DNA of 64,000 nt from an uncultured Gammaproteobacteria bacterium (GCA_947260025.1 CAMYON010000002.1:3714-67713); one strand, 5' to 3'. Counted from the stretch's first letter, positions 35,677 through 56,109 are shown. A program made the numbers and translations. The notes: a model not told the origin generated them from the sequence alone.

Positions 35677-36695
35677 TCAGGCTCGGTTACGCTGATGAAA
35701 TGATCCAGCAGGCTGGTCAGGTAGCTGCCCGCGGGCAGCCGCAGCTCCAGTTGCAGCGATTTTCCCGCCGCGTCCAGTTCGTATTGCAGGTCCTCGACCA
35801 CGACCCTGAGCGGCCGCATCTGTAGCTTGACGTCCTGATTGTCGAGACAGCTGGTGATTTCGCCATGCTCGCTGTGCACCTGCTGCTCTATCTGCAAAGC
35901 CGGTCCCGAGAGTTGATTCTGACCGCTGCCGTAGAGACTGGCGGTGCTGGCAATGTCCAGGCTCGCATGACGCTGCAACAAGGTTGCGTCGAGCGCTTCG
36001 CTGAAAATCGAATGACTACCGCGCAGCATGAATACATCGCCCTCGAGCGGGTCTGACCAGTGCCCCTGCGAGATGCGCCGCGATAACACCTGGTTAAACA
36101 GGTGGCTGCGCAGCGCAGACAGCAGCATGCCGCGGCGCGTGCGCTTGAGACGGGACCCGGCAAGCTGCGCTAGCGCCTGCTCGACGTTGTCCTGGCGACG
36201 ACCAAAACGCTGCGACCCGAAGTAATTCGCCATGCCCCGGCTCGCGATGGCCTCCAGCTGTTCACGAGTGGTCACGGGCAGGTCATCGACCGCCCGGATA
36301 CAGACGCGAAAGAAATTAGACTTGTGGCTGCCGCGCCGCAGCTTGCTGCGGTTACGCAACGCCCGCAGCACGCGGTAACCGTCGCCGGAGGAGACTTTCG
36401 GTTCTGTTTTTTGTCCGGGCAGATGCAGGCTCAGCCACTGCGTCGTCAGCGCATTTTTATCCTTCATGCCGCTAAAGCCGATGTGGCGCGGATGAATCGA
36501 GTAATCCCCGGAAATTTTTGCGATTAGTTCCGGTGTACTGAGGCCCGACTTTTCCACCTGCAGGAACAGGTGCTCCCCCTCTCCTGAAGGTTCGAACCCG
36601 AGCTCCTCGAGCACAATAAAATCCTGCGGCCGCGATTTGATTACGCCGCTGATGAGAGTATCCCCGTAAGGAAAAACCAGCGCCGACTGTTTCAA
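35661..36695 (-). CDS. truD: tRNA pseudouridine(13) synthase
   Basis: Catalytic-Asp region ...FSGMKDKNALTTQW... 344 aa. Confidence 0.85.
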   Translation of the reverse strand: MKQSALVFPYGDTLISGVIKSRPQDFIVLEELGFEPSGEGEHLFLQVEKSGLSTPELIAKISGDYSIHPRHIGFSGMKDKNALTTQWLSLHLPGQKTEPKVSSGDGYRVLRALRNRSKLRRGSHKSNFFRVCIRAVDDLPVTTREQLEAIASRGMANYFGSQRFGRRQDNVEQALAQLAGSRLKRTRRGMLLSALRSHLFNQVLSRRISQGHWSDPLEGDVFMLRGSHSIFSEALDATLLQRHASLDIASTASLYGSGQNQLSGPALQIEQQVHSEHGEITSCLDNQDVKLQMRPLRVVVEDLQYELDAAGKSLQLELRLPAGSYLTSLLDHFISVTEPDQARF

Positions 36696-37357
36696 GTGCT
36701 CTTTTTCTCGGCAACCCGGTTACGGAGGTAATTGATGCCGGCCGAACTGGCGTCAACCCCATGATTGGCGACTGCCGCCGCCGCGGCCAGCTGCAGCATC
36801 GATCTGGCGTCTGGCAGTAACTCTGCCTCGACGCTAAAGTCGGCCGCTGCGCGTAGTTCGTCGACCCAACCGTGCCCGAGGCCATAATCGACGCCGGCAT
36901 CGATTTCGATCTCCGCGACCGGACTCAGGCGTTCGCTACCCGACAGCCGGGCTCGGCCCTGCTCGTCGTGCTCGTAAATCGCCCAGTAAATCTCCTGCAT
37001 CCGTGCATCGAGCGCAACCAGCGGTCGCCTGCAATCGAAACGGTCGAAGCCCGTCTGCGCCAGTAACGCCAGTGTGGATATCGGTAACAAAGGGATCCCC
37101 AGTGCGATACCGATCCCCTGCGCCTGCGCGGCAGCGATCCTTATCCCGGTAAAAGCTCCGGGTCCATTGGCAAAGGCGCAATGTGTAATGGAAGTCCTGG
37201 CGATACCCGAGGCGGCCAGCACCTGGTCCATCATGCGCGGTAACAGGCGGGTGTGCTGGCGTGGGGCAACTTCAAACTCACTGAATATCTCGCCGTCTTC
37301 ACGCAGCAGCGCCGCGGAACAGGCTTCGGTAGAGGTATCGATGGCGAGGATATTCAC
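36692..37357 (-). CDS. tsaB: tRNA threonylcarbamoyladenosine biosynthesis protein TsaB
   Basis: MNILAIDTSTEACSAAL... is the YeaZ/TsaB N-terminus. 221 aa. Confidence 0.85.
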   Translation of the reverse strand: MNILAIDTSTEACSAALLREDGEIFSEFEVAPRQHTRLLPRMMDQVLAASGIARTSITHCAFANGPGAFTGIRIAAAQAQGIGIALGIPLLPISTLALLAQTGFDRFDCRRPLVALDARMQEIYWAIYEHDEQGRARLSGSERLSPVAEIEIDAGVDYGLGHGWVDELRAAADFSVEAELLPDARSMLQLAAAAAVANHGVDASSAGINYLRNRVAEKKST

Positions 37358-37421
37358 GCCGCTATGATAGGCTACAGTTTACCAACCTGGCCAGCCAAAC
37401 TACAAAACTGCAGCCGTTTTG

Positions 37422-37973
37422 TTAACTTAATTTCTGGATTATCTTGCGGGCATCGCCAACCAGCGGGTGTCTGGGATTTTCCGCGATAAATTTGCGGATC
37501 GTAATCAACGATTGCTCGGTTTGACCGATCGCCGCAAGACTGATGCTCTTGCCGAAAAGTGCGTTGGGACACAGCGAGCTTTGCTCGAACTCCTGCAGAA
37601 ACTCGTCGAACGCCTCGACCGCGGCCACAAGTTCACCCCGATCCATTTTTACCTGTGCCTGGCTGAATTTCTGTAACTCCGCCTGAAACTGCCGATCCTG
37701 CGACAAATCGTTCTTCCAGTAGGGCTGTAGCAGGGTATCGGTGGCTTCAGCACCCCGAATTCCGGCGGTATAGACCGCTTCCGATTTGGCTGACTCTTTT
37801 TGCGATGGATTGAATGATTTGAGATTCGCCCATACCGAACGGAAAAACCCGGTTAAAACGCTACTCGAACTGGTTTCGACAAAGCTGCTGGTATCCTGGG
37901 CACCAACCATCGGTGCAAACCCTAATGCGATTACGCACTGGGTGATAATTAAAAACTTCTTCATATCGAACAT
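37422..37973 (-). CDS. Small secreted hypothetical protein, translationally coupled to the giant NHL/TPR/transglutaminase gene
   Basis: Signal peptide MKKFLIITQCVIALGFAPMVGAQD. ~180 aa, helical, no known domain. Its ATG abuts the upstream TAG (TAGATG). Confidence 0.5.
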   Translation of the reverse strand: MFDMKKFLIITQCVIALGFAPMVGAQDTSSFVETSSSSVLTGFFRSVWANLKSFNPSQKESAKSEAVYTAGIRGAEATDTLLQPYWKNDLSQDRQFQAELQKFSQAQVKMDRGELVAAVEAFDEFLQEFEQSSLCPNALFGKSISLAAIGQTEQSLITIRKFIAENPRHPLVGDARKIIQKLS

Positions 37974-40900
37974 CTACTGGTTTAAAAGTTTGCTGTACGC
38001 ATCATATTCCTTTTTCAGGCTGTTATCCATTTTTAAGGCCTGTTCATAGCTGCTCCTGGCCGCCTGCAGATCGCCTGCACTATAGTGCGCCATAGACAGA
38101 TTTATCCATATTCTGCCATCCTCGGGGTCGAGTTCGGCGGCCCGCGCATAGTTTTCGATTGCCCGCGCGTAATCTTTCTGCAAAAAGTACAGGTTACCGC
38201 GATTGCTCTTGACCGCACTGTCCTGGGGCGCCAGTTCATCCAGTGCATCGAAGGCCAGCTCCGCCTTTTCATACAGCCCATAACGTGCATAAAGAATACC
38301 TATTTGCAGCCGTGCGGCGATATTACTCGGATTATTGTCCACCATGGCCCGATAAGGCAGAATCAGGCGATCGATACTCTTCTGCAGCAGCAGGCCCTGC
38401 GCCTGTCGGACAAGACTCTCGGTGCGTCGCACCTCCGGCAATTCAATCGAATAGCTCGCCTTGCGCAGCGTTACCGGCTGGTAGGCTTGCCACGCCTGGT
38501 CCAGGCTGATTATCCCGAGTTCGCCAGTCTCGAGTGCGGCCTGATACTTGCGCGCGCCCTCGGCCCAGGCCTCGTTGAAATTCGTATTAACCATGGTAGC
38601 TTCCAGCGGTATCCACACCTTGCCATCGTTTATCACCAGCAGACTGTTGTCCTGGCTGATTAGATCAGCCTCCTGCTCGGCGAGGCCGGTATCGAACATC
38701 AGGAAAAGATGCCCCGGAACTTCAATGAAGGCGGTATTGATACCCAGGTTCTCGAGCCCGGCACTGATTAATACCGACAAATCATCGCAATCCCCGCTTT
38801 TGAGCCGCAGGGTTTCGCGTGGAAACTGCACGTAGTCGACCTGGTCATCGCGTAACTCGTTAAACGGGGTATTGGGATCAACAATGTAATTAATGCCGGA
38901 GGCGGTGAGACTGCTGAAGTACGCCATCGCCGCAACCAGCTTTTCGTTCAGCGGCCCAGGATCTGGTTGAAAGGCATTGACCACCTGGCGCACGTAATCC
39001 CTGAGCGTGTCATCTTTCGGCGTCACGAACGAACCGATCATTTCCGCGTCACCCCAAACGATCGCATTCTTACCGTAAACCGTCATCGGCTGGGTCAAGG
39101 TAATGTCATCCTTTTGCCCATCACGCTGATAGGTCAACCTGACTTCGACCTGAACCCCCGTGTCTTCGTCGACCTCGAGAATTCGGTTGTTGAAAGTGGC
39201 GTTTATCGGGATTTCCCGGGTTTCCTTACCCTCGATTACGGCAATATCGACCGCCGTTGGAAAGTCCATAAACTCCTTGATCTGGAAGGATAGTTTCAGG
39301 TTACCGTAGTCGGTGGCGCTGACGTTACGCAAGTTGACGCTGCCGATTGGCCGGTCCTGGTACTTTTTGTAAGCGGCCGAAAAAACCGTGTCCAGATTCA
39401 GGTCGGAAAGCAACAACTGGGGAGCGTTGTTCTTGAATTCGAGCGATTTCTTGCGTTCCGCGAAAGCAACGTTCAGGATCGCGCGATTCTGCTCCGAAGG
39501 ATCGAGTTCTACCGCTTGCTCGAACTCCGCAACCGCGGCGTCGAACATACGCCGCTTGGCATAAAGGTTTCCGAGCGCAACATGCGGTTCCGCCCATTGC
39601 GGCCGAATCGCGGCCGCCCGCTCCAGGTGATCGCTAGACGCATCGAACAGGTTTGCATCCTGATAGACGCGCCCGATTCGATACTGCAAATCGGCAGAAG
39701 TGGAATCGACACTGATCGCCGTCTTGAGAAACTCGATCGCGGAGCCAACCTTGCCCTGTTGATTGGCAATATCTGCCTGTAGCACCAGTACGTCGATATC
39801 CTCGGGGGCGATCCTGGAGGCCGCCTCGGCATGAATCGAGGCAGAACGGTAGTTGCGGGTGGCAAACAGGCTACGAGCGTAGCGCTTGCGTTCATTCAGC
39901 GATTGCGGCTGCAGTGTAACGGCCGTCTCGAGATAGACGTTGGCGTCTCGGTAGCTTTCGCGCTCGAGTTCAATCTTGCCCGCGAGCGCATACAGCTCGA
40001 ATGCATCGGGATTTTGTTGAATGCCCTGGGCCAGCGATTTTACAGCTTCGGCGGGCTGTTTCATTTCAACGAAGGAGCGCGCCAGGGACAGCCATGCGTC
40101 GATCACTTCGGGACTATCCTTGACAACTCGCGTCAGACGCAAGACCGCCTCTTTGTGCCTGCCCTGCTTGGCGGCAATTTTACCGAGCAGGTAGTAGCCT
40201 TCGCTCCGGGTTTCCTTGCCACCGGACAACTCGACCGCTACCGACCTGGCCTCCTCGTCGCGGTTAAGATGCAGCAGCGAGCGTGCCTTTCCGACCGCGG
40301 CGGCGCCCAAATCCGGCCGCATTCCGGAGACCGCCGCATAGTGCCCCAACGCCTCCTCGTAATTACCCATGTTGTATAGATCCTGTGCAATCCTGAGCCT
40401 GATCCTGAAATCATCGGGATGGCGCTCGACTATCGCCTGGTAAGTAAGCAGACCGTCGTCGACGATACCTGCTTCGATATAGGCCCTACCCAGCAGGTAT
40501 CGCAGTTCGACATTTTCCGGGTACGCGACGAGACCATCCTCGGCGCAGGTAACCGCTCCGAGAGCATCCGCCAGGTTTAAACTCGACCGGGCACAGATCA
40601 AAAACGGCTCCACTTCGGACGGCTCCTGTTCCAGCACTTCATCGATTAGCGCTCGAGCCTCGAGAAATTGCCCCAGCTCATAATGCGCCCGCACCTGATA
40701 AAGAATCGCCTTGTCATGATATATCTCCGAATCCGCAAGTCGCCTGAACTCGCCGAGCGCTCGCGTATAATTTTTTAACTGGTAGAGACTCATGCCCAGT
40801 AAATCGCGCACATCGGCGTTGTCCGGTTCGAGTCGAAGCATCTTGTCAGCCAGGTTGACCACGTCGGCGAATTCATTGCTTTCGTAAAGTCCGGTAATCG

Positions 40901-42953
40901 TCTGAAAATGGTTCTGCTTCGGCAGCGATGGTGCAGCACGCAGTCCGTGAGCGCTCACCGATACGACTCTGAACCACCTGTACTCGCCGGCGTCATCGAC
41001 CGACAGCGTCTGCCCCAGCGACGAGCTCGTGGAAATGGTCTCGAACGGGCCATCCCTGTTCCTGGCAGCCTCGACTTCATACTTTTCGATAAGCGGAGAT
41101 TTACTGCTGCTCCATGCCAGGTTGATCTGATCTCTGTTGGCAGAGATATTCAGGCCAAACGCTGAATCCGGATACTCCAGCAGGTCGAAACGAAAATACT
41201 TCTGACGTTCGCTGTCGTTGACATAAATACTGTTCTTTGCGCCGGAAGATACCGAAATCGATGTCGCTTTTTCGAGATACGCCAGGGTTCCATTCTTACC
41301 CGCGGAGCCGAAGGCGCGGTAAGGTTCGAAATTGCTGAACACCTGAACCCAGTAATCGTTGAAATCCGAGGCTGCCAATACATAGAGCCGGTCCTGCAGA
41401 TCAATATCCAGTCCGTAGAAACGGGTGAACTCATGCAGTGATTTTCCCTTGATACCGATGGCAGCGATTTTTTTGCGATCCTTGTTGATCACCTGAATCA
41501 CTCCGCCCGCGCCCCGGTCTGCAATGTAAAGATTCTCTTCGCTATCCAGGGCGATGGGCCCTACTTCGACGAATAGTTGTTCGCCGTCTCGTTGTTGATT
41601 GATCTCTTCCAGAAACTGCCCATCACTCGAAAAAACCTGGATCCTGTTATTACCCTTGTCGGTAACATAATATTTGCCATGACTTACGAAAACATCGCTG
41701 GGATTCTGAAATCCGGCGGCAGAAGTTCCATAGCGGCCTATCGTAAAAAGCTTGCTACCGTCGAGGGAAAAAGCATGTAACCTGTTTTTGTCGAGTATTG
41801 CCACCGATTGCGCGCCAACGTGAATCGCCTGCGGCTTTTTCGCCTCCTCGGCGAACCTGCCGGTCTCTTTGCCGTCGGCTCCGAGTATGACAATTCCCTG
41901 GTTGTCAGGTCTTATGCAAAGGACCCGGCCTTCGGTAAAAACGGTCATCGCCACGCAGGGTGCATCGTAAGCAGCACCGAATTCAAGCAAATCGATCGCC
42001 ACGGGAGTGGCAAAACCGGTCTGGTCCAGCTGTAAAACCTCTACCTTCTTGTTCCTGGTATCCAGAATCGCTAGCTGGCCGTTGGTATTGACAGACAATT
42101 GGCTAATATCGAGAAAACGCGTGCGCGATTGCCCCAACCCGCCAAACTCTCCAAACACCTGTCGCGTTCGCCAGTCGAAAAACACGACCCGTTTGCTGAC
42201 AGCATCGCCAAGGTAAAGATTTCCGTCCAGATCGGTGGTCAGTGCGCTGAACTCCGGCGTTTCGCCAAAGAACTCCGTTAATTCTTGCGCCGTAACACGC
42301 TCGATCAGATTCCCCTGCCGGTTAAAAACGGATATACGGGTCGGGCCCTCGAGCACATAAATATTCTCGTCGGCATCGATACTGATATGGGTGGGCTTGA
42401 GGAGATCCGTTTTTCTGTTGCCATTCCTGCCAATACTGCGCAAAAAAAGCCCCTGGTAATTAAATACGCTGATCTGCTTGTTATTGACGTCGCCCAGGTA
42501 AATCTTTCTGTTGGACGAGACCGCAACCGCTTTCGGATCATTGAGTTCGCCCGGAGAGCTTCCGGATTGCGAAAACCGTGTCACCAGCTCTAACGCCGGA
42601 TCCAGTATCACAACCTCTCCGGAGCCTTCGTTTACGACGACCAGGTTACCGTTGGGTAGTATATCGACACCGCCGAGACTGGAGTCATCGAAAATGGAGG
42701 GTAACAGACTGATTGCTTCGATACTGCCGTCGACGATTCTTAACAGCGTACCCTGTTCTTCGCTGGTGACATAAACCACGCCATCGTCGCTTATTTTTAT
42801 ACCGCTGGCGTCCTCCATGATCCGGGCATAGTCACCAGCCTCGATAAATTGAAGAATTTCGATCGCCCGCGCCTGGGCCGACAAGCCTGTTAGAACAAGG
42901 ACGATTAATATCCGGAGACAATACTTTTGCGCTTTCATGACCTCGTTCCGCAA
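37974..42953 (-). CDS. Giant secreted multidomain protein: signal peptide, NHL-repeat beta-propellers, FN3 domain, ~10 TPR repeats, transglutaminase-like cysteine protease core, C-terminal TPRs
   Basis: 1,659 aa. N-terminal signal peptide. Repeated NHL-like blades (YVTDKGNNRIQVFSSDGQF, LYIADRGAGGVIQVINKD, LAILDTRNKKVEVL). Transglutaminase-like catalytic region SGDCDDLSVLISAGLENLGINTAFIEVPGHLFLMFD, with Cys, His and Asp spaced as in TGase/BTLCP cores. Long TPR arrays before and after. By eye, the gene has lower GC (~50-53%) than its flanks. Confidence 0.7.
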   Translation of the reverse strand: MRNEVMKAQKYCLRILIVLVLTGLSAQARAIEILQFIEAGDYARIMEDASGIKISDDGVVYVTSEEQGTLLRIVDGSIEAISLLPSIFDDSSLGGVDILPNGNLVVVNEGSGEVVILDPALELVTRFSQSGSSPGELNDPKAVAVSSNRKIYLGDVNNKQISVFNYQGLFLRSIGRNGNRKTDLLKPTHISIDADENIYVLEGPTRISVFNRQGNLIERVTAQELTEFFGETPEFSALTTDLDGNLYLGDAVSKRVVFFDWRTRQVFGEFGGLGQSRTRFLDISQLSVNTNGQLAILDTRNKKVEVLQLDQTGFATPVAIDLLEFGAAYDAPCVAMTVFTEGRVLCIRPDNQGIVILGADGKETGRFAEEAKKPQAIHVGAQSVAILDKNRLHAFSLDGSKLFTIGRYGTSAAGFQNPSDVFVSHGKYYVTDKGNNRIQVFSSDGQFLEEINQQRDGEQLFVEVGPIALDSEENLYIADRGAGGVIQVINKDRKKIAAIGIKGKSLHEFTRFYGLDIDLQDRLYVLAASDFNDYWVQVFSNFEPYRAFGSAGKNGTLAYLEKATSISVSSGAKNSIYVNDSERQKYFRFDLLEYPDSAFGLNISANRDQINLAWSSSKSPLIEKYEVEAARNRDGPFETISTSSSLGQTLSVDDAGEYRWFRVVSVSAHGLRAAPSLPKQNHFQTITGLYESNEFADVVNLADKMLRLEPDNADVRDLLGMSLYQLKNYTRALGEFRRLADSEIYHDKAILYQVRAHYELGQFLEARALIDEVLEQEPSEVEPFLICARSSLNLADALGAVTCAEDGLVAYPENVELRYLLGRAYIEAGIVDDGLLTYQAIVERHPDDFRIRLRIAQDLYNMGNYEEALGHYAAVSGMRPDLGAAAVGKARSLLHLNRDEEARSVAVELSGGKETRSEGYYLLGKIAAKQGRHKEAVLRLTRVVKDSPEVIDAWLSLARSFVEMKQPAEAVKSLAQGIQQNPDAFELYALAGKIELERESYRDANVYLETAVTLQPQSLNERKRYARSLFATRNYRSASIHAEAASRIAPEDIDVLVLQADIANQQGKVGSAIEFLKTAISVDSTSADLQYRIGRVYQDANLFDASSDHLERAAAIRPQWAEPHVALGNLYAKRRMFDAAVAEFEQAVELDPSEQNRAILNVAFAERKKSLEFKNNAPQLLLSDLNLDTVFSAAYKKYQDRPIGSVNLRNVSATDYGNLKLSFQIKEFMDFPTAVDIAVIEGKETREIPINATFNNRILEVDEDTGVQVEVRLTYQRDGQKDDITLTQPMTVYGKNAIVWGDAEMIGSFVTPKDDTLRDYVRQVVNAFQPDPGPLNEKLVAAMAYFSSLTASGINYIVDPNTPFNELRDDQVDYVQFPRETLRLKSGDCDDLSVLISAGLENLGINTAFIEVPGHLFLMFDTGLAEQEADLISQDNSLLVINDGKVWIPLEATMVNTNFNEAWAEGARKYQAALETGELGIISLDQAWQAYQPVTLRKASYSIELPEVRRTESLVRQAQGLLLQKSIDRLILPYRAMVDNNPSNIAARLQIGILYARYGLYEKAELAFDALDELAPQDSAVKSNRGNLYFLQKDYARAIENYARAAELDPEDGRIWINLSMAHYSAGDLQAARSSYEQALKMDNSLKKEYDAYSKLLNQ

Positions 42954-43008
42954 GCAGTCCTCGCGGCTAGCGTCGAGCCTCGGTGCCAGGAACTGATCCT
43001 AAAGCTCG

Positions 43009-43779
43009 CTAAGTGGCTATCCCCCTTTTACTGTTTCTGACGAAATCGACAAACTCTTCCACCTCCGGGTATTCTTCACACAAAGCTTCGAGATTCGCGA
43101 AAGCGTCCTGTTTCGACCCCCTGGATTTTAAAAGTTCACGAAAAGATTTGTGCAAAGCACGTATCACTTCAGGAGAAAATCCCTTGCGCTTTAAACCTTC
43201 CTTGTTGATTCCGATGACCCGGGCGCGATTTCCAGCGGCGGTGGAAAACGGCGGTATATCCTGGGTGACGACCGAGCCCAGGCCGCAAAACGCCCTGCTT
43301 CCGATCTGGGTAAACTGGTGTACCGACGTGAAGCCGCCGAGCGTCGCATAGTCGCCGACTTCGACATGCCCCGATAGCGAGGCCGCATTGGCAAATATCG
43401 TATGGCTACCAACGATACAGTCATGCGCGACATGGCTATAGGCCATGAACAGGTTGTCGCTGCCAATCACCGTTTTACCGTGACCATCATCAGTGCCGCG
43501 GTTGAGGGTCACATACTCGCGAATCACGTTGCGATCGCCGAGTTCCAGCAGGGTTGGTTCTCCCTGGTACTTTTTGTCCTGGGGCGCGTCACCGATCGAC
43601 GAAAACTGGAATATCCGGTTATCGCGGCCGATCCTGCTGGGGCCCATAATCACGACATGCGGTCCGATAACAGTACCGGCGCCAATTTCGACCCCCGCCC
43701 CGATCACGCTATAAGCCCCGATTTCGACGTCATCCGCTACGCGAGCGCTGGCGTCGACAATAGCGGTTTCATGGATCAT
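43009..43779 (-). CDS. lpxA: Acyl-ACP--UDP-N-acetylglucosamine O-acyltransferase
   Basis: [33 protein letters not shown]... hexapeptide repeats with an LpxA C-terminal helical domain. Confidence 0.9.
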
Positions 43780-44225
43780 TGTTGGCGCTCCTGGGCAGAG
43801 CACATCATTTCGGCTTCGGCAACTACCTCGCCATCGACCGTTGCCTTGCACTGGTACATGCCGATACCGCGCATGTTGCGCTTCAGGCTAATATTCAGCG
43901 ACAGCTGATCGCCGGGAACCACCTGCCCCCTGAAACGGGATTTATCGATACCAACCAGCATGTAGAGCTTGGTTTCATGCCCATCCCCCATGTCGGAAAA
44001 CGCCAGTAATCCGGTAGCCTGCGCCATTGCTTCGAGAATCAGTACGCCCGGCATGATCGGCTGATTCGGAAAATGCCCCTGAAAAAAAGGCTCGTTAATG
44101 GTTACATTCTTGATTGCAGACAGGCTCTTGCCCTGCTCGATCTCGACCACGCGATCGATTAACAAAAACGGATAACGGTGGGGTAAAAGCTCCATCACCT
44201 TGCTGATATCAAGTTCCAATTTCAA
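43776..44225 (-). CDS. fabZ: 3-hydroxyacyl-ACP dehydratase
   Basis: ...[13 protein letters not shown]...[16 protein letters not shown]... is the canonical FabZ signature. Confidence 0.93.
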
Positions 44226-44257
44226 TCCTCGTTTACTGGTAAGCGCCGCTACGGCGT

Positions 44258-45277
44258 TTACTTCCTGGTTTTCTCTAGTCTGGCAACGCTTTGCGCTAAC
44301 TTGTCCAGAGACTTGTAACGCGCGTTATTGCGATGCCAGAGGCTGTTCTCCATCAACGGCGTTCCGGAAGAATAAACCCCCGGCTGCTTGATGTCCTTGG
44401 TTACCAGTGACATTGCGGTAATGATGACATTATCGGCCACGCTCAAATGGCCAAGCACTACCGCCGCACCCGAAATCTTGCAGTTACGTCCGATGACCGC
44501 ACTACCCGCGATGCCGACACAGGCCGCAATCGCGGTATGGGCACCGATACGCACGTTATGCGCTACCTGTATCTGGTTATCGAGCTTGCATCCCGTTTCG
44601 ATGACCGTGTCATCGAGCGCTCCACGATCGATCGTGGTATTGGCACCTACTTCCACATCAGCCTCGATGATGACGCCACCCAGCTGCGGGATCTTATGCC
44701 ACTGCTGTTGGTGCATGACCACGCCGAAACCGTCTGCTCCGATCACTACGCCGGGATGCAGTATACACCTGTCGCCGATAGTTACCGCCTGTTCCAGCGA
44801 AACCCGGTCATGGATCTGACACTGCTCGCCGATGCGCACGCCTTGAGCTACGATAACGCCCGAGCCGATCTCACTGCTGGCGCCAATTTCGACGTTATCC
44901 CCAATCACCGTCAGCGCACCAATACTGACATCACTGCCAATGCGAGCACTTTCGGCGATCTGCGCCGATGGGTGAATAGTACCTGCCGACGGCTGTCTTC
45001 CGAGCCCGAGCGAGGCAATCGCCTGCACAAAACTGTATTGTGGATTATCGGATATCAGTATTGTCCTGTCGCCGACAAGCGTGCTCAGTTCGGGTGTCAG
45101 GATCACCGCAGCACATTGACTGGCAGCAATATCCCCCAGGTATTTTCGGTGCTGGACAAAACAGAGATCCTGGGGCGTCGCGGATTTTAGCGAGGCAACG
45201 CCGCTTATCGTTAACCCGGGCTCGCCATGGAACTCCAGTTGCAGTGCGGCGGCCAGTTGTTGCAGATTAAGACTCAT
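44258..45277 (-). CDS. lpxD: UDP-3-O-(3-hydroxyacyl)glucosamine N-acyltransferase
   Basis: Left-handed beta-helix hexapeptide repeats. Position between skp and fabZ. Confidence 0.9.
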
Positions 45278-45325
45278 GCGCGCTCGGGTTATCTGCCGGA
45301 AAGTACAGGAACAGAAGACCCTGTT

Positions 45326-45856
45326 CTACTGAGATTCCTCGCTCGATTCGGGGAGTTGTTTCAGCATTTCGATGGTTTGCGTGGTAATGTCGATCTGGTC
45401 AGAGACGTAGCTGACGCCCTCGGTCAGAATAAGATCGAATTCACCCGCATCGCCCTGCATTTCAAGCACGTTGGAAATGACTTGCTGCAACTCGCGAATT
45501 TCCTCGTTACGACGCAGGTTCTGGTCTTCGCGAAACTCCTGCTCGAGAAACTTCAGCTGGCTGACCTTGAGCCTGATTTCACGCTCCAGCTTGCGCCGTG
45601 CATTCGAAGTCAGGCCGCTGCTTGATTTCAGCTCGCCCTCCATCGCCAGGATTTCCTGCCGTTTTTCCTTGAGCTGCGCTTCACGCGGACCAAACTCCGC
45701 CTTCAGGCGCTCCTCCACCTTGCGCGCCTGTGGCGCTTCTTTCAATATCCTGGCGGTGTTGACAAACCCTATCTTCAAATCCGCCGCCTGGACGGATAGG
45801 GTCGACAGCGTTGCAACCACCAGCAGTGCCAAAAATGAGTGAATATATCTTTTCAA
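45326..45856 (-). CDS. skp: Periplasmic chaperone Skp (OmpH)
   Basis: Signal peptide. ~176-aa coiled-coil protein between bamA and lpxD. Confidence 0.8.
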   Translation of the reverse strand: MKRYIHSFLALLVVATLSTLSVQAADLKIGFVNTARILKEAPQARKVEERLKAEFGPREAQLKEKRQEILAMEGELKSSSGLTSNARRKLEREIRLKVSQLKFLEQEFREDQNLRRNEEIRELQQVISNVLEMQGDAGEFDLILTEGVSYVSDQIDITTQTIEMLKQLPESSEESQ

Positions 45857-45864
45857 TTTGTTCT

Positions 45865-48174
45865 CTAAAAGGACGCTCCGAGCGCGAACTGGAAATTTTC
45901 GACATCGTCACCGGATTCGTCGTTCAACGGCACCGCGTAGCTGAATTCAATCGGGCCAATAAATGAAAACCACTTGGCTGAGAGTCCCACGGACTGGCGC
46001 AGCTCATCGGATTCAAAATCCTCGGTATCTGCAAATACGTTACCGGCATCGAAGTATACCCCAAGCCTGAAGGTTTCTGAACTGCCCAGCGCCTCGATTG
46101 GAAACAACACTTCGGTGGTGGTAATCACCTGCAGATTACCACCAAGCGGATCGCCTTCACTATCTCGAGGACCGAGGCTGTTAAACTCGTACCCCCTGAT
46201 CGAGCGCACGCCACCGGCGGTAAGCTTTTCATAGATCGGCAAGTCTTCGGCATCACCATAGCCATCCCCGACACCGATTCGGCCTCTGAAGTTAAAGGTG
46301 AAGGTTTCCGACAGGGCGTAAGCGGTCTGGTGCCGGTATCTCACCTTGTAAAAATCGAGGTCGCCGCTATGAAACTCGAGTCCGATGCTGTTGAGATGCC
46401 CTGAACTGGCAAATATTCTGCGGTTACGCGTGTCCTTAGACAGGTTGATACCGCTGAACACGGTCTCGTATTCATCCCCATCTACCTCCGAGTTCGGCGT
46501 CGACTCGTCATACTCGTCGCTGTTATCGCGAACAAAGTCGAAAACTTCCTGGGAGGAGCCGCTAGTAGTTCTAAAATCGTCTTGCTGGACACCGATCTCG
46601 AGCCTGAGCCGATTGTATTCAGATAGCGGAATTCCGTAATTCACCGACACACGGATCCGGTCGATCAGAAAATTACTGGTGTTGTTCTCCGAGGCATCCG
46701 TTTCCGAGTATCTGAAATTGAAACCGCGGCTGACGCCGTCGGGCGTATAGTAAGGGTTCGTATAAGACAGCGAGTAGCGTTCCGAGGCAGCGGAGTTATC
46801 GAAGTTAAACTTTAACGAGTTGCCGCCACCAAATATATTCTCGTGGGCAAATCCGAGATTGACAATGACGCCCTGCACCTGCGAATAGCCAAGGCCCAAC
46901 TGCAGATTCCCGGAAAATCGTTCGGTTACATCGACCTCCAGATCCACCTGGTCGTCCACATCCGGCACCGTTACCAGCCTGATGTTTGCCGAGGCAATAT
47001 AATTAAGTCGTTGCAGCCGAACGCGCGAACGGTCGACCTTCGAGCGCCGGTACATTTCACCCTCGAACTGGCGCATCTCACGGCGTAATACGAGATCCTG
47101 TGTCTTTTCGTTACCGACGAACTTGATGTAGCGCACGCGCATCGCCTTGCCTGGTATAACGACAAATTGCAGCATGACGGTTTGCTCTTCCTCGTTTACG
47201 TCGCTCACAACCCGGATATCCGCGTAGGCGTAACCATCCTCGCCGAGACGCTTTTGCATCGCAGTCACTATATTGTTTATCCGCTTGCGGGAAACGATAT
47301 CGCCTTCGCGCAGGCTGACCAACGCCTGCAGTTCGACTTCATCGACCACCATTTCTCCGGTAATCTTGGTGCCGCCCACCCGGAACTGATTGCCTTCGCT
47401 GACGTTGATGCTAATCGTAATATCCTTGCGGTCGGGACTGATCGTGACCTGCTGGGATTCCACCTGGAACTGCACGTAGCCCTGATCGAGGTAAAACGAC
47501 TTCAACGACTCCAGGTCAGCCGTCAGCTTTGTGCTTGAATACTCGTCGTCGGCAAACCATCCGGACTCGCTGGTTTCGAGCTGGAATAATTCGAGCAATT
47601 CCTCTTCCGGGAAATCCTGGTTACCGGTGATGTTGATAGACTTGATAGTCGCTGAAATACCCTCGGAAATCGTGATATCGATAGCGATTCTGTCCTCATC
47701 TATTTTGCGCCAGTCGGCGTCGATACGGGCCGCGTATTTTCCAAGCGAGTAGTAGACCTGTTGTAACTCAAGCTCGAGCTTTTCAAGTTTGTTTTGATCG
47801 AAGATGCGCCCCTTCGACATGCCTACCTGTTCCAGGGCCTGATCCAGCGCTTCGTCCTCGATATCGTCATTGCCCTCGAAATTAACTTCTGCGATAGAAG
47901 GCCTCTCTACTACCTTGATGACGAGGACATTGTCGCGTCGCAGGAGCTCGATATCGTCGAAGAAGCCGGTTGAATAAAGTTCGCGGATAATTTCAGGAGT
48001 ACGCTCGGGATCCAGCGTTTCGCCCACGTTGATCGGCAGGTAGCTGAATACCGTCCCGATCGATATCTTCTTGACACCGATGACTTCGATATTCTCGACC
48101 TTGAAACTGTCAGCCTGTGCCCAACAGGAAGCCGAGAGTAGCAGCAGAGCGCTGAACCAGACGAAAATTCTCAA
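45865..48174 (-). CDS. bamA: Outer membrane protein assembly factor BamA
   Basis: 769 aa. Signal peptide, POTRA repeats and a C-terminal beta-barrel ending ...LGASF. Conserved position. Confidence 0.9.
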   Translation of the reverse strand: MRIFVWFSALLLLSASCWAQADSFKVENIEVIGVKKISIGTVFSYLPINVGETLDPERTPEIIRELYSTGFFDDIELLRRDNVLVIKVVERPSIAEVNFEGNDDIEDEALDQALEQVGMSKGRIFDQNKLEKLELELQQVYYSLGKYAARIDADWRKIDEDRIAIDITISEGISATIKSINITGNQDFPEEELLELFQLETSESGWFADDEYSSTKLTADLESLKSFYLDQGYVQFQVESQQVTISPDRKDITISINVSEGNQFRVGGTKITGEMVVDEVELQALVSLREGDIVSRKRINNIVTAMQKRLGEDGYAYADIRVVSDVNEEEQTVMLQFVVIPGKAMRVRYIKFVGNEKTQDLVLRREMRQFEGEMYRRSKVDRSRVRLQRLNYIASANIRLVTVPDVDDQVDLEVDVTERFSGNLQLGLGYSQVQGVIVNLGFAHENIFGGGNSLKFNFDNSAASERYSLSYTNPYYTPDGVSRGFNFRYSETDASENNTSNFLIDRIRVSVNYGIPLSEYNRLRLEIGVQQDDFRTTSGSSQEVFDFVRDNSDEYDESTPNSEVDGDEYETVFSGINLSKDTRNRRIFASSGHLNSIGLEFHSGDLDFYKVRYRHQTAYALSETFTFNFRGRIGVGDGYGDAEDLPIYEKLTAGGVRSIRGYEFNSLGPRDSEGDPLGGNLQVITTTEVLFPIEALGSSETFRLGVYFDAGNVFADTEDFESDELRQSVGLSAKWFSFIGPIEFSYAVPLNDESGDDVENFQFALGASF

Positions 48175-48176
48175 AC

Positions 48177-49556
48177 TTAGTCTACCAGGCGCAGTAAATC
48201 GTTATAAACGGCAATCGACATCAGGCAGAAGAGTAGCAGGATACCAATTTTCTGGCCGATAATTTCGGTTTGTTCTGACACCGGACTTCCCTTGACGACT
48301 TCGACTAAATAATAAAACAAATGCCCGCCATCCAGCATGGGAACCGGTAGCAGATTTAAAACACCAAGACTGATACTGATGATCGCGAGAAACCCGAGAA
48401 AAGGCTCGAGTCCAATACGTGCCGTTATCCCGGCATAGTGCGCAATCGTGATCGGGCCACTCAGATTCCTGACGCTGGCCTCGCCGGTAACGAGCTTACC
48501 CAATACGCGCAAGGTTAGCCAGGTCATTCGCCAGGTTTTATCCATGGCCTCGACCATCCCATCGACCGCTCCATAGCGTTCAGTGACTGACATTTCACGG
48601 CGTATCGAATCGGGGATCTCAACCCGGTTTCTGACGCCGATATAGCCATAGGTTTCGCCCGCTTCGCTGCGGCTTCGAGGGGTCAGGGTCAGCCTGGTTT
48701 CGACGCCATCGCGTAACACCTTTAGCGACATCGGCCTCTCGGGATTGTTCCGAATATCTCGAACCCACTGCTGGACATTTTCGATCGCAGTGCCGTCGAG
48801 CTCCAGAATTTTGTCACCCGCCTGCAGGCCCGCCTGTTGTGCGGCCCCGTCGGGCAGAACTTCGTCGATAATCGGCGGAATATCCGGTCGCCATGGAGAC
48901 AGGCCCAAATCCCGCATCAGGTCGATCTGGTCTCTTTGCAGCAGCTCGAGCCCGCGAATATCGATTACCTTGTCGCGAATCTGTAAATCCTCGCTTTGCA
49001 CCCGCAAAATAATCTGATCTGCGCCTACCGCCTCTTCCAGCATGGTGAATCGTGCCTTTTCCCAACTCGGAGTATCGATGCCGTTGACCGACAATATAAG
49101 GTCGCGTTGCTGAACCCCCGCTGTATAGGCAGGACCCGGGCTATTTACTTCACCGATTAGCGGCTTGACGCCGCCGACACCAACCACGAACATCAGGTAA
49201 TAAGCCAGAATTGCAAACAGGAAATTAAACGCGGGACCCGCGGCCACGATGGCCATACGACGCCAGACCGACTTGCGATTAAAGGCACGATCCAGGTCTT
49301 GTGGCGCAACATCGCCTTCACGCTCGTCGAGCATCTTGACGTAGCCGCCGAACGGAATACTGGCGATTACGTACTCGGTCTGGTCGGGGCCCGCCTGACG
49401 CATCCACAGCGGTTTGCCGAAGCCGACCGAAAAGCGCAGGACCTTGACGCCCATTTTACGCGCCACCCAGAAATGGCCGAATTCATGAATGGTGACCAAA
49501 ACGCCGATCGCGACGATAAAGGCCAGCAGACTGTAGACAAGTCCCAAAAAATCCAT
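48177..49556 (-). CDS. rseP: Sigma-E protease regulator RIP zinc metalloprotease RseP
   Basis: HEFGHFWVAR (HExxH) and PDZ domains. 459 aa. Confidence 0.9.
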   Translation of the reverse strand: MDFLGLVYSLLAFIVAIGVLVTIHEFGHFWVARKMGVKVLRFSVGFGKPLWMRQAGPDQTEYVIASIPFGGYVKMLDEREGDVAPQDLDRAFNRKSVWRRMAIVAAGPAFNFLFAILAYYLMFVVGVGGVKPLIGEVNSPGPAYTAGVQQRDLILSVNGIDTPSWEKARFTMLEEAVGADQIILRVQSEDLQIRDKVIDIRGLELLQRDQIDLMRDLGLSPWRPDIPPIIDEVLPDGAAQQAGLQAGDKILELDGTAIENVQQWVRDIRNNPERPMSLKVLRDGVETRLTLTPRSRSEAGETYGYIGVRNRVEIPDSIRREMSVTERYGAVDGMVEAMDKTWRMTWLTLRVLGKLVTGEASVRNLSGPITIAHYAGITARIGLEPFLGFLAIISISLGVLNLLPVPMLDGGHLFYYLVEVVKGSPVSEQTEIIGQKIGILLLFCLMSIAVYNDLLRLVD

Positions 49557-49557
49557 G

Positions 49558-50736
49558 CTAGTTAACTCCGGGCGCTACCAACGACAGCGCGAGTTCTCGT
49601 GCGCTGGCGTCAGCCTGTAAAATACTGTCCAGCCTGTCCGCCGGACCGGTTGATGTTTGCTCCATGACCTGGGTAATTAGTCTCGGAATTTCGATAAAAC
49701 TGATACTTCGCTGCAAAAATTGCTCCACCGCAACCTCGTTGGCCGCATTCAACACCGCCATACTGGTACCGCCCCTATGCCAGGCCTCGCGCGCCAGCGC
49801 AAGACAGGGATAACGCGACTCGTCCGCGAGTGTGAAGTCTAATTGACTGACCTGCAACAAATCCAATGGTTCGGCGCCACTTTCGATGCGTTCAGGCCAG
49901 GTCAGGGCGTTGGCGATCGGAGTTCTCATATCAGGATTTCCCAGTTGCGCAATTACCGAACCGTCCAGGTACGACACCATGGAATGAACGATGCTCTGCC
50001 GATGCAGCACGATGTCGATATCGGAGTGATCGACCGCAAACAACCAGCAGGCTTCGATCATTTCGAGTCCCTTGTTCATCATGGTTGCGGAATCGACCGA
50101 GATTTTAGGCCCCATGTCCCAGTTGGGATGCGCACAGGCCTGTTCCGGCGTCACGTTTTCCAGCTGCGCGATATCGATATCCCGGAAAGGCCCCCCGGAA
50201 CCGGTCAATATTATCCGGTGAACCCCCGACTCGAGCGCAGCCTGACCGATACTCCCGGGTGGCAGACACTGGAAGATGGCATTGTGTTCGCTGTCGACAG
50301 GCAACAGCTCGGCCTGGTGCTGGCGCACTTCATCCATAAACAGCGCGCCCGCCATGACCAGTGACTCCTTGTTGGCAAGCAGGACGCGCTTGCCGCCGCG
50401 AATTGCCGCTAACGTCGGTAACAGACCGGCTGCGCCAACAATGGCGGCAACCACGATGTCAACGCCGTCGTCGGCAGCAACCTGTGCCAGGCACGATTCT
50501 CCCGCCAGTACTTCGGTCGGTAAATCGGCAATTACCTCGCTCAGGCGCTGGGCGCTGTCGGGATCCGCCATCACCACGTATCGAGGCTCGAACTGCCGGC
50601 ACAGCTGGCGCATTTTCTGATCGTTGTCGTTCGCCGTCAGCGCATACAGTGCAAACCTGTCGCGGTGACGTGCGATGATGTCGAGTGTGGACTGACCGAC
50701 CGAACCGGTGGCCCCGAGAATCGTAACCTGCTTCAT
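49558..50736 (-). CDS. dxr: 1-deoxy-D-xylulose 5-phosphate reductoisomerase
   Basis: MKQVTILGATGSVGQSTLDII... is the canonical Dxr N-terminus. Confidence 0.93.
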   Translation of the reverse strand: MKQVTILGATGSVGQSTLDIIARHRDRFALYALTANDNDQKMRQLCRQFEPRYVVMADPDSAQRLSEVIADLPTEVLAGESCLAQVAADDGVDIVVAAIVGAAGLLPTLAAIRGGKRVLLANKESLVMAGALFMDEVRQHQAELLPVDSEHNAIFQCLPPGSIGQAALESGVHRIILTGSGGPFRDIDIAQLENVTPEQACAHPNWDMGPKISVDSATMMNKGLEMIEACWLFAVDHSDIDIVLHRQSIVHSMVSYLDGSVIAQLGNPDMRTPIANALTWPERIESGAEPLDLLQVSQLDFTLADESRYPCLALAREAWHRGGTSMAVLNAANEVAVEQFLQRSISFIEIPRLITQVMEQTSTGPADRLDSILQADASARELALSLVAPGVN

Positions 50737-54699: not shown

Positions 54700-55863
54700 T
54701 TAGTCCTTAGTAGCGTCCTTCTTGGTAGCGGCCTTCTTGGTCGCCGCCTTCTTGGTGGCTGCTTTCTTGGTCGCCGCCTTCTTGGTCGCTGCTTTCTTGG
54801 TCGCCGACTTCTTGGTAGCGGCCTTCTTGGTAGCGGCCTTCTTGGTCGCCGTCTTCTTGGTGGCTGCTTTCTTAGCTGCAGGCTCCTCCTCGGCCACGGG
54901 CTCTGCCGCTGCTGTAGAGTCATCCTTTGCACCTTCATCAACGTCAGCATCAGCCGCGGCTGGCGTAGCTGCCTCTTCGACCGCCGCACTCTGCGCAGGC
55001 GCTTCTGCAGGTGCTTCCTCTGCAGCTGCCGGCTCCTCTGCAGCCGCTGGTTCAGCTTCGGCTTGCGCCGCTGTTGCCGGTGTTTTCTTGGCGCTTACCT
55101 TGACCGCAGGCCTGGCTGCAACTGTTTCTGCATCCTCTTCGATTTCGATCAACTCGTCGTCGCTATCGGCCCCGGCAACGATACTTTGCTTACCTTCGAC
55201 AACGGCGTCGGCCACCAGCCGGGCATAAAGTTTAATAGCGCGCATCGAATCATCGTTGCCGGGTACGATGTACTCGACATTATCCGGGGAGTTGTTGGTG
55301 TCGACGATACCGACCACTGGAATGCCGAGCTTGGCGGCTTCCTGGACCGCGATCTTTTCGTATCCCACGTCGATTACGAACAGCACGTCAGGCAGACCAT
55401 TCATTTCCTTGATGCCGCCGAGTGTCTTCTCGAGCTTTTCCTGTTCGCGTGACAGCTGCAGTATTTCCTTTTTATTGATCTTTTCGTAGCTATTACTGGC
55501 GGCCATCTCTTCAAGCTCCTTGAGACGCTTGATCGACGCGCGTACGGTCCGAAAATTGGTCAGCATACCGCCCAGCCAACGGTGGTTGACAAACGGCATA
55601 CCGCAACGCTCGGCTTCCTCTTTGACCGCATCGCTAGCGGCACGCTTGGTGCCGACAAACATGATTTTGCCTTTCTTGGATGCGACCTTGCCGAGGTAAT
55701 TCACCGCGTCCTTGCACAGCGGCATGGTTTGCTCGAGGTTGATGATGTGGATCTTGTTGCGCTCGCCAAAAATGAAGGGCGCCATTTTAGGGTTCCAGAA
55801 ACGGGTTTGGTGACCGAAATGCACGCCCGCTTCCAACATTTCACGCATGGTGACGTTAGACAT
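54700..55863 (-). CDS. rpsB: 30S ribosomal protein S2 with a ~140-aa low-complexity C-terminal extension (acidic Ala/Glu/Pro block, then basic (AATKK)n repeats)
   Basis: The first ~245 aa are a canonical S2 ([27 protein letters not shown]...). The tail is ...[18 protein letters not shown]... then [22 protein letters not shown]... about 11 times. Start at the internal Met with a GGAGA ribosome-binding site. Confidence 0.9.
54705..54878. repeat. 15-bp tandem repeat (~11 units, consensus cttcttggtMgcSgc) encoding the (AATKK)n tail of rpsB
   Basis: Direct reading of 54705-54878: ...ccttcttggtagcggccttcttggtcgccgccttcttggtggctgctttcttggtcgccgcc... Confidence 0.85.
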
Positions 55864-56109
55864 AGTATCTCCAGATGTCTGTTGAACAGCCTGTTTGCGG
55901 CTATCCTGGGTTAAGCCTCCACATACCCGACGCTCACGACCTGCTGTCTCTGGTAAAACGCAGGCACCCATGAACGCGTTGCGGCATGTGTGTGTCGTTA
56001 GGGAACACCGAAAATTGCGATGCCCCGATTAATTTGCCCCTGCAGTTGCCGAGGGCGCGCGCTTTATACCATAATCCCGTATTCTCAACAACCAGCCAGC
56101 AGTAGTTTT

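Follow-up and report, generated by a model that had tools for sequence, protein, structure and literature searches.

A large propeller/TPR protein with a transglutaminase-fold unit and a small partner, syntenic with lpxA in an uncultured gammaproteobacterial lineage

What is a giant gene of unfamiliar architecture doing directly behind lpxA, and did it come there recently from elsewhere? The question is raised by the window, a 64,000-nucleotide stretch of DNA from an uncultured Gammaproteobacteria bacterium (GCA_947260025.1, CAMYON010000002.1:3714-67713), in which a preliminary description had noticed a large secreted protein coupled to a small one and had taken the pair for an accessory insertion. 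Here, we show that the large gene, referred to as BIG, and its partner are real genes that make up a real, yet uncharacterised, two-gene unit, and we weigh what this unit may do.

Architecture of the large gene and its small partner

BIG is an uninterrupted open reading frame on the minus strand (37974..42953), listed with 1,659 aa when begun at a TTG. The most likely start is the ATG at 42938 instead, because this codon has a GAGG upstream and yields 1,654 aa, as in most homologs; the full-length homologs fall into more than 110 clusters of about that length, with identities of 89-26%. The gene, its scaffold domains and the partner are laid out as follows.

37974..42938, minus strand: BIG, 1,654 aa and a TAG stop (1,659 aa from the alternative TTG at 42953)
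42864..42938, minus strand: predicted signal peptide, aa 1-25, MKAQKYCLRILIVLVLTGLSAQARA before IE, read from the sequence and from the hydrophobic N-terminus of homologs
42012..42863, minus strand: NHL-type beta-propeller region 1, aa 26-309 (Pfam NHL 45.7 bits, DUF5128 33.6 bits)
41172..42011, minus strand: NHL-type beta-propeller region 2, aa 310-589 (Pfam NHL 37.8 bits, DUF5128 31.6 bits)
40899..41171, minus strand: tentative FN3-like linker domain, aa 590-680 (weak BLAST matches)
39447..40898, minus strand: long TPR array A, aa 681-1164 (scores well over threshold for many TPR families)
37977..38438, minus strand: short C-terminal TPR array B, aa 1501-1654 (TPR_1, TPR_2, TPR_8, TPR_16)
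37422..37964, minus strand: small partner, predicted to be exported, 180 aa, with a signal peptide, the motif AGIRGAE..L.PYWK and a C-terminal TPR like that of CpoB/YbgF or BamD

The multidomain exported architecture that the preliminary description had given BIG largely holds. The N-terminus reads as a signal peptide ending in AQA-RA/IE, and 25 of 26 full-length homologs begin with a comparable hydrophobic, signal-peptide-like segment, in line with the signal peptide noted before. At least two NHL-type propellers had also been named; when the two N-terminal halves were scanned separately, each passed the Pfam cut-offs both for NHL (20) and for the 6-bladed propeller DUF5128 (22.9), the blade count being that of the profiles. 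The proposed FN3 module fared worse, as the segment has no Pfam fn3 match at E≤10. Its BLAST matches to a relative (P0394) that scores 83.7 bits on Pfam fn3, above threshold, are weak (E 0.006, 0.016 and lower in significance); of these, the weakest piece (E 0.21, residues 775-807) was compared with the fn3 stretches of that relative and overlaps the one at 777-858. An FN3 domain in BIG is thus tentative. The TPR arrays are strongly supported, with matches in array A at 689-767, 813-842, 923-988 and 1120-1152 and with the best stretches of four families in array B at 1576-1639, but the second array, which had been called long, is short (~150 aa).

Giant TPR/propeller proteins without an assigned function are common. 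As the preliminary description had stated, no described system is known to have the architecture of BIG: the source records label it only 'tetratricopeptide repeat protein', and in the literature on ProA and on transglutaminase/TPR/NHL combinations we found neither a description of the protein nor a named family. BIG shares NHL propellers and long TPR arrays with the PrsT-type PEP-CTERM TPR proteins and the ScyF-type NHL proteins, but its scores on TIGR02917 (167.6 bits, cut-off 312) and NF035926 (138.1 bits, cut-off 350) are far below both cut-offs, both families lack the catalytic unit described below, and no PEP-CTERM or exosortase genes were seen near BIG.

The partner lies directly 3' of BIG on the same strand in 71 of 71 species-level loci, counting those in which the DNA runs on for >300 nt past the BIG stop, and because of this the two genes form a fixed module, as the operon-type coupling proposed earlier would have it. 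Adjacency and orientation are kept across divergent genomes; a partner is found near the BIG homolog even in an outlier of 26% identity, and 9-12 nt separate the two genes in the window and in close relatives. The TAG of BIG had been reported to abut the ATG of a 180-aa protein. The length stands, but the abutting ATG would give 183 aa, and the start probably lies 9 nt beyond it, since the homologs (n=314) are nearly all 180 aa. A signal-peptide-like N-terminus is present in 45 of 45 partner homologs; judged by the signal peptides read from sequence, both proteins of the pair are exported.

How close is the partner to known envelope proteins? Like CpoB (YbgF) and BamD it is small, predicted to be exported and C-terminally TPR-bearing, with an envelope-biogenesis neighbourhood, and many of its homologs carry the JGI label 'TolA-binding protein'. 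Its C-terminal ~75 residues match TIGR02795 YbgF at E=1.4e-5 and BamD at E=8e-4, in neither case reaching the cut-off, and because the scores (25.6 bits against a cut-off of 90.1, and 18.9 bits against 81.4, respectively) fall so far short, it belongs to neither family. Unlike CpoB/YbgF, it neighbours BIG and tsaB and not the tol-pal operon; unlike BamD, it has no lipobox; and unlike both, it carries its own N-terminal motif, AGIRGAE..L.PYWK, which the conservation pattern marks as invariant.

The Ig-like and transglutaminase-fold unit

Between the two TPR arrays lies a unit in which the Ig-like domain always stands ahead of the core.

39078..39446, minus strand: Ig-like beta-sandwich domain, aa 1165-1287, packed before the catalytic domain
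38439..39077, minus strand: transglutaminase-fold (papain-like) domain, aa 1288-1500
38787..38789, minus strand: codon of Cys1384 in GDCDD, predicted nucleophile, invariant in 23 divergent sequences (codon checked)
38709..38711, minus strand: codon of His1410 in VPGHL, predicted general base, invariant (codon checked)
38601..38603, minus strand: codon of Glu1446 in WIPLEAT, predicted third triad residue, invariant

The domain has the papain-like alpha/beta fold of the transglutaminase core, and all three residues are invariant across 23 sequences that reach down to 31% identity and belong to different architectures. Of the Cys-His-Asp core in the preliminary description, the core itself, the Cys and the His are upheld, but the third catalytic residue is probably Glu1446 rather than an Asp, because Glu1446 is invariant. 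By sequence pattern it is assigned to the W..xDPT-like position of the transglutaminase core, ~36 residues after the His and past an inserted helix-hairpin. The Asp of LFLMFD was considered for this role and dropped because many homologs have Asn there. A Glu for Asp in such a triad is unusual.

By profile score, the BIG domain stays below the Pfam thresholds both for PF01841 (13.1 bits, threshold 23) and for DUF553 (16.1 bits, threshold 20.5). Among its distant relatives PF01841 is the top family in 8 of 8, and 3 of these 8 score above threshold (25.4-27.2 bits); since BIG itself falls short while these relatives pass, its membership in the transglutaminase-like superfamily is supported in a transitive manner only. 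Compared with the papain-like Cys-His-Asp enzymes of PF01841, BIG stands apart by its predicted Glu, its below-threshold score, the Ig-like domain always in front and the inserted helix-hairpin before the Glu. The superfamily includes members with non-canonical third residues (PMC4866520).

The two domains of this unit are the most conserved part of BIG, with a mean identity to the protein of the window of 72-74% compared with 47-58% for the other mature domains, and with 40-61% compared with 15-42% in the most distant homologs. The unit also forms a large family of its own, with 1,652 clusters (defined at 50% identity) at E≤1e-30 and several architectures, including a variant in which the same module is fused to an outer-membrane beta-barrel domain, a fusion that speaks for export. 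In this barrel variant (L090) the downstream and neighbouring ORFs have no significant match to the small partner, and the ORF downstream of a short variant (L091) does not match it at E≤10. A profile search of PDB sequences matched nothing meaningful, and tblastn against plasmids gave one weak archaeal match only.

A functional comparison is offered by LapG, a Cys-His-Asp protease of the periplasm that has the transglutaminase fold and Ca2+ near its active site (PMC4359373). LapG/BTLCP (PDB 4fgo) is a single domain of ~200 aa that works under the c-di-GMP receptor LapD and cuts a giant adhesin. The BIG domain, in contrast, is embedded in a propeller/TPR protein of 1,654 aa, its sequence similarity to LapG is undetectable, and no LapD- or LapA-like gene adjoins the pair. 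That the GDCDD of BIG might bind Ca2+ is a matter of speculation.

Locus, base composition and the insertion question

BIG directly follows lpxA at the end of the order map-rpsB-...-bamA-skp-lpxD-fabZ-lpxA as read in the window, just as the preliminary description had placed it. Two neighbours are given for context.

43009..43851, minus strand: lpxA, upstream neighbour (Pfam Acetyltransf_11 and Hexapep)
36692..37357, minus strand: tsaB-like gene, downstream neighbour (Pfam TsaD family)

The lpxA-BIG gap measures ~70 nt if BIG starts at the ATG (42938) and 55 nt if it starts at the TTG (42953), and the partner-tsaB gap is 64 nt. Neither gap contains a terminator-like site, and promoter-like matches in the region do not exceed the shuffle expectation.

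Was the pair then acquired horizontally, as an accessory insertion into the conserved slot between lpxA and lpxB? The idea is a tempting one: the pair does take the place of lpxB-rnhB after lpxA, lpxB was not found among the window ORFs scanned, the module sits in unrelated contexts in more distant clades, and the pair had been described as lower in GC than its flanks. The last point stands for the downstream side only. The GC of BIG (0.539) and of the partner (0.506) is below that of tsaB (0.612) and truD (0.597), but not below that of the upstream genes, lpxA (0.552), fabZ (0.521), lpxD (0.559), skp (0.538), bamA (0.523) and rseP (0.547), so that the pair equals the rseP-bamA-lpxA block in composition and does not differ from both flanks. 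No tRNA was found in the window, and no integrase, transposase or other mobile-element domain in the window ORFs scanned. The order lpxD-fabZ-lpxA-pair-tsaB-truD is repeated in 30 species-level loci, with tsaB-truD downstream of the pair in 2 more that lack room upstream, and also in a 62%-identical relative (L001) on an 843-kb contig; the lpxA-pair-tsaB position is found in ~33 species-level genomes, that of the Olavius Gamma 3 symbiont among them, and the divergence of the BIG protein tracks that of its neighbours. Presence is not patchy either, with one possible loss, in the related complete genome record CP070646.1, where most of the large gene is apparently gone; if this loss is real, BIG is dispensable there.

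Because the lpxA-pair-tsaB order recurs and the GC matches the upstream flank, the locus is ancestral within the clade, which is the outcome that the preliminary description had itself named as speaking against an accessory origin. The pair has long been fixed beside outer-membrane biogenesis genes in this lineage and is no recent foreign insertion; a recent event is largely refuted, and horizontal acquisition into the slot is altogether very improbable. The reading as a foreign island is thereby put right. In more distant clades the module has other genomic surroundings, and it follows that it was relocated at some older time.

Proposed function and its rivals

What might the module do? Our best reading, to which we assign a probability of roughly 0.4, is that BIG works in the periplasm as a cysteine hydrolase or transamidase of the transglutaminase fold, carried on a propeller/TPR scaffold, served by a CpoB-like adaptor and acting on envelope substrates. 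Both products would reach the periplasm, rather than the extracellular space, via cleavable signal peptides. There the scaffold, consisting of two NHL propellers, a small beta domain and the long TPR array, would present a single enzymatic unit, the Ig-like domain packed on the transglutaminase-fold domain with its predicted triad Cys1384-His1410-Glu1446, followed by a short TPR tail. The propellers and TPRs may pick the substrate, and the 180-aa partner, with a C-terminus like the TPR of CpoB/YbgF and BamD, could contact BIG as an adaptor or regulator. The likeliest chemistry would be thiol-dependent: a peptide or isopeptide bond, either within an envelope protein or in a protein-peptidoglycan link, would be cleaved or transferred, comparable to what LapG and other periplasmic enzymes of this fold do. 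In this lineage, where it has long been fixed, the module probably shares a transcript with bamA-skp-lpxD-fabZ-lpxA. Of the roles suggested earlier, a crosslinking or proteolytic envelope scaffold stays plausible, but a predation-related factor finds no support. A bolder form of the proposal, which we regard as quite unlikely, sees an undescribed envelope-remodelling machine: a periplasmic isopeptidase or transpeptidase for outer-membrane protein-peptidoglycan links or for clients of the BAM/LPS pathway, guided by propellers and TPRs, gated by the CpoB-like adaptor and, in one large uncultured lineage of Gammaproteobacteria, taken up into the core bamA-lpxA operon.

Catalysis itself could be questioned, as the transglutaminase-fold domain may serve for binding, like its counterparts in Rad4/XPC, erythrocyte protein 4.2 and axonemal DRC7, with BIG as a periplasmic TPR/propeller organiser and the small protein as one of its clients. 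The invariance of Cys, His and Glu across architectures argues against such a scaffold, as does the superior conservation of the catalytic domain within BIG, and whereas inactive transglutaminase-fold homologs usually lose the Cys, BIG retains it; we consider this reading unlikely. Similarly doubtful is a true transglutaminase or matrix-building role tied to a chemolithoautotrophic lifestyle, in which the enzyme would crosslink or process extracellular or outer-surface proteins (sheaths, stalks, globule envelopes, electron-transfer complexes) of sulfur- and iron-oxidising bacteria. The carriers are indeed, by record title, largely such oxidisers or their relatives (Olavius Gamma 3 symbiont, Thiohalomonas, Acidiferrobacterales, Zetaproteobacteria/Ghiorsea/Mariprofundaceae, Gallionellaceae), although this taxon list may mirror sediment sampling. 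Genes for glycosyltransferase, YfhO and acyltransferase surround the most distant full-length homolog, but no cytochrome, secretion or matrix gene consistently adjoins the module. NHL-domain proteins also occur in extracellular electron-uptake clusters (10.1101/2022.05.06.490989), yet those of the Tenderiales cluster are different proteins, and the data fit transferase and hydrolase chemistry alike.

A role in defence, with BIG as a surface sensor or effector, is suggested by homology of the catalytic unit to the N-terminus of the 'anti-phage protein ProA' (NCBIfam NF058533), of which positions 11-321 of 1903 align with BIG aa 1197-1498 (E=2.7e-11). The alignment is confined to the first ~320 residues of ProA, whose ~1,580 further residues are unmatched by BIG, and because it scores 41.6 bits against a cut-off of 1500, the two proteins share one module only. 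Neither the catalytic unit nor the small partner has a PADLOC match, the pair is inherited vertically in a syntenic housekeeping setting with no defence genes adjoining, and in the literature on ProA we found nothing from which to judge a mechanism. We hold a defence role to be highly improbable.

If the preferred reading, a periplasmic cysteine hydrolase or transamidase, holds, a widespread exported transglutaminase-fold family would join the short list of periplasmic cysteine enzymes, with a sub-family that has an obligate small partner and sits within an outer-membrane biogenesis operon in a whole lineage of uncultured relatives of sulfur oxidisers, an animal symbiont among them. No long-standing question is answered by this; the value lies in a well-delimited candidate rather than in surprise, with Cys1384 as predicted catalytic residue and the partner as co-expression candidate for concrete handles.

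Genomic context bears on the envelope role from two sides. Outside this clade the gene neighbourhood is not envelope-specific, and in one clade the module is linked to a CHASE2 cyclase, which weighs against such a role; within the clade the module lies inside the bamA-lpxA cluster in ~33 species, with boundaries free of terminator-like sites, which speaks in its favour.

An exported protein and its partner

The pair downstream of lpxA is real and well delimited, an uncharacterised variant inside the known transglutaminase-like superfamily; what is unusual about it is the size of the large protein, the fixed partner and the notable operon position. Our analysis supports an exported two-protein unit: a transglutaminase-fold domain, its predicted Cys-His-acid triad intact, forms the conserved core and is carried on a large interaction scaffold. 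Its parts are located as follows:

37974–42953, minus strand: large gene, uninterrupted in the ORF list
37422–37973, minus strand: small ORF, 183 aa as listed, directly after the large ORF
~aa 681–1164 of the large protein: TPR array A
~aa 1501–1654 of the large protein: TPR array B

The most probable start of the large gene is the ATG at 42938, since GAGG lies a few bases 5' of it and the resulting 1,654-aa product has the length of most homologs. For the partner, the preliminary description had the ATG abutting the TAG stop of the large gene. The small ORF does lie right behind it, but because partner homologs are nearly all 180 aa long, the start is probably the second ATG (37964), 9 nt past the TAG. 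Both proteins carry an N-terminal signal-peptide-like segment, as had been described for the large one, and the N-terminus is hydrophobic in 25 of 26 full-length large-protein homologs and in 45 of 45 partner homologs.

The pairing was counted in the best 80 loci from a scan with one genome per species, 71 of which have >300 nt past the large-gene stop, while the other nine end too early. In all 71 the next gene downstream, on the same strand, is a partner homolog, which bears out the proposed coupling; at a 26%-identity outlier, the partner is 1.5 kb upstream on the opposite strand. We found 314 partner homologs, and the N-terminal motif AGIRGAE..L.PYWK is invariant, Zetaproteobacteria relatives included. 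The C-terminal ~75 residues resemble the TPRs of YbgF/CpoB (E=1.4e-5) and BamD (E=8e-4), in both cases far below the family cut-off. Two contigs of one Ghiorsea MAG (isolate Faavne_M6_B18; L082 and L084) each carry the large gene followed by the partner gene, so a single genome may contain paralogous modules; in the L082 copy the open frame is shorter, at 1,052 aa.

Scaffold and predicted catalytic domain

The domain calls made from the sequence alone mostly held. TPR families (many) and NHL repeats score far above threshold in Pfam. Scanned separately, aa 26–309 and aa 310–589 give 45.7 and 37.8 bits on NHL (cut-off 20) and each passes DUF5128, a 6-bladed propeller family; two propeller regions are therefore supported, in line with the at least two proposed. 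The proposed FN3 module (aa 590–680) is tentative: it has no Pfam match at E<=10, but BLAST links it weakly (E 0.006, 0.016 and poorer) to the relative P0394, which scores 83.7 bits on Pfam fn3.

Direct Pfam scans of the catalytic core are weak (DUF553, E=0.0077; PF01841, E=0.12). In a predicted model of aa 1165–1510 (pLDDT 84), an alpha/beta domain follows a beta-sandwich. Ig-like matches dominated the fold searches made with this two-domain model, and we therefore modelled aa 1288–1504 alone, from 23 divergent sequences (pLDDT 92.3, pTM 0.91). The figures listed under this model are 8.9 for PNGase and for a Cytophaga cysteine protease, 8.8 for LapG, 8.6 for TglA, 8.2 for TG2 and TG3, 7.7 for PeiW and 6.9 for TgpA. 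PF01841 is the best family in eight of eight distant relatives of the domain, above threshold in three. The proposed transglutaminase-like Cys-His-Asp core stands as regards the fold and the first two residues: Cys1384 and His1410 are invariant in 23/23 sequences, as is Glu1446. The Asp of LFLMFD is weakened as third catalytic residue, since many homologs have Asn there, and Glu1446 (in WIPLEAT) is the better candidate; non-canonical third residues are known in the superfamily (PMC4866520).

Conservation in the large protein is highest in the Ig-like and transglutaminase-fold domains, whose mean identity to the window protein is 72–74%, against 47–58% for the remaining mature domains; among the most distant homologs the corresponding values are 40–61% and 15–42%.

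What might such a unit do? By analogy with periplasmic enzymes of the same fold (LapG, a Cys-His-Asp protease that depends on Ca2+, PMC4359373; PeiW and PeiP, which are cell-wall isopeptidases), the domain would most likely act on a peptide or isopeptide bond in an envelope component, by cleavage or transfer that depends on a thiol, with the TPR partner as adaptor or regulator. We put this reading as a whole, a thiol-dependent envelope enzyme on a scaffold with a TPR adaptor or regulator, at 0.4. More speculatively, Ca2+ might be bound by the acidic GDCDD motif in which the predicted nucleophile lies. That the large protein is a non-catalytic scaffold seems unlikely to us. We regard as similarly doubtful a matrix or crosslinking role linked to a sulfur- or iron-oxidising lifestyle, which is suggested by the many carriers that are sulfur and iron oxidisers. 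A role in defence is highly improbable. It is suggested by a match of aa 1197–1498 (window 38445–39350), at E=2.7e-11, to the opening ~320 positions of the NCBIfam model NF058533 ('anti-phage protein ProA'); the module is common to the N-terminus of that 1,903-position model, but the large protein scores 41.6 bits against a cut-off of 1500. Our literature search on ProA found no describing paper.

Genomic position

The window order is map-rpsB-tsf-pyrH-frr-uppS-cdsA-dxr-rseP-bamA-skp-lpxD-fabZ-lpxA, then the pair, then tsaB-truD. With the pair placed immediately behind lpxA, and lpxB absent from the window ORFs scanned, the observation that it occupies the slot normally held by lpxB is right. 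It had further been taken for a foreign insertion of lower GC than the flanking housekeeping genes. The GC of the large gene (0.539) and partner (0.506) is indeed below that of downstream tsaB (0.612) and truD (0.597), the only higher values in the comparison, but the contrast fails against upstream rseP to lpxA (0.52–0.56). The pair and rseP, bamA, skp, lpxD, fabZ and lpxA form a contiguous lower-GC block (37400–49600; gene GC 0.51–0.56, GC3 0.60–0.68), most other window genes being at 0.58–0.63. The window contains no tRNA, and none of the scanned ORFs shows a mobility domain. The order lpxA-pair-tsaB-truD is kept on an 843-kb contig whose homolog is 62% identical, and recurs in 30 species-level loci; two more loci, which lack upstream room, have tsaB-truD downstream of the pair. 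The Olavius algarvensis Gamma 3 endosymbiont is represented among these loci. A recent accessory insertion is very improbable.

All but three loci at >= ~70% domain identity have this order and no more distant locus does; the place after lpxA is therefore old and stable inside one clade. In distant clades the pair stands in unrelated gene contexts, and the module has relocated over deeper time. No terminator-like site lies between lpxA and the large gene or between the partner and tsaB, and the pair is possibly co-transcribed with the bamA-lpxA cluster.

In CP070646.1 (L009:9144–10543; a 3.72-Mb genome record), partner, tsaB and truD are intact and only the last 243 aa of the large protein are left (80% identical; from aa 1412, just past the catalytic His), next to an ABC permease that is itself truncated; the cause is either a genuine deletion or a join made in assembly.

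Relatives and other observations

The full-length protein forms >110 clusters at 90% identity, nearly all of ~1,650–1,690 aa, at 89% down to 26% identity and solely labelled 'tetratricopeptide repeat protein'. The catalytic module alone is a much larger family: clustered at 50% identity it comprises 1,652 clusters with E<=1e-30, rising to 6,594 when the limit is E<=1e-3, and the recurrent protein sizes are ~1,650, ~1,240 and ~700–850 aa. In one variant, two NHL regions are combined with two clear fn3 domains and a long TPR array is missing; in another, the module is joined to an outer-membrane beta-barrel domain:

P0352, P0355, P0357, P0359; L090:6001–7611: 536–569 aa, N-terminal outer-membrane beta-barrel, Ig-like and transglutaminase-fold unit, no TPR
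e.g. L056:4189–6471, minus strand: CHASE2 and adenylate/guanylate cyclase gene, ~730 aa, directly upstream of a large gene and divergent

At L090 the barrel variant is followed by a 237-aa exported protein (FecR-like/TPR-like by eye) and an ECF sigma factor. The adjoining genes include no detectable partner homolog. The cyclase (at L056, CHASE2 203 bits and Guanylate_cyc 88 bits in Pfam) is a neighbour in 13 species-level loci of other clades (L044, L049, L050, L051, L056, L058, L060, L069, L071, L074, L080, L081, L087; Acidiferrobacterales, Ca. Muproteobacteria, Burkholderiales-labelled MAGs), which may point to regulation through cyclic-nucleotide signalling. In a further clade (L047, L054, L055, L057, L062, L064, L065, L067), GspA/ExeA-like (AAA ATPase) and GspB-like ORFs, by eye, recur a few kb downstream of the pair on the opposite strand, probably as plain synteny. 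The MAG titles of L030, L044, L063, L071, L081 and L087 (Acidimicrobiia, Nitrospira, Haliangium, Enterobacteriaceae) probably reflect mis-binning or mislabelling rather than true hosts; these loci are syntenic with, or close kin of, gammaproteobacterial ones.

Elsewhere in the window, a 527-aa ORF (59541–61124, plus) has no Pfam family at E<=1e-6. A 739-aa ORF (20947–23166, minus) joins an N-terminal pyridine nucleotide-disulphide oxidoreductase to a C-terminal AIRS/AIRS_C of selenophosphate-synthetase or PurM type. The ribosomal protein S2 ORF (54700–55971, minus; 423 aa as listed) has its Pfam S2 domain at residues 45–260 only, which points to a long extension at the C-terminus or to a start set wrongly.
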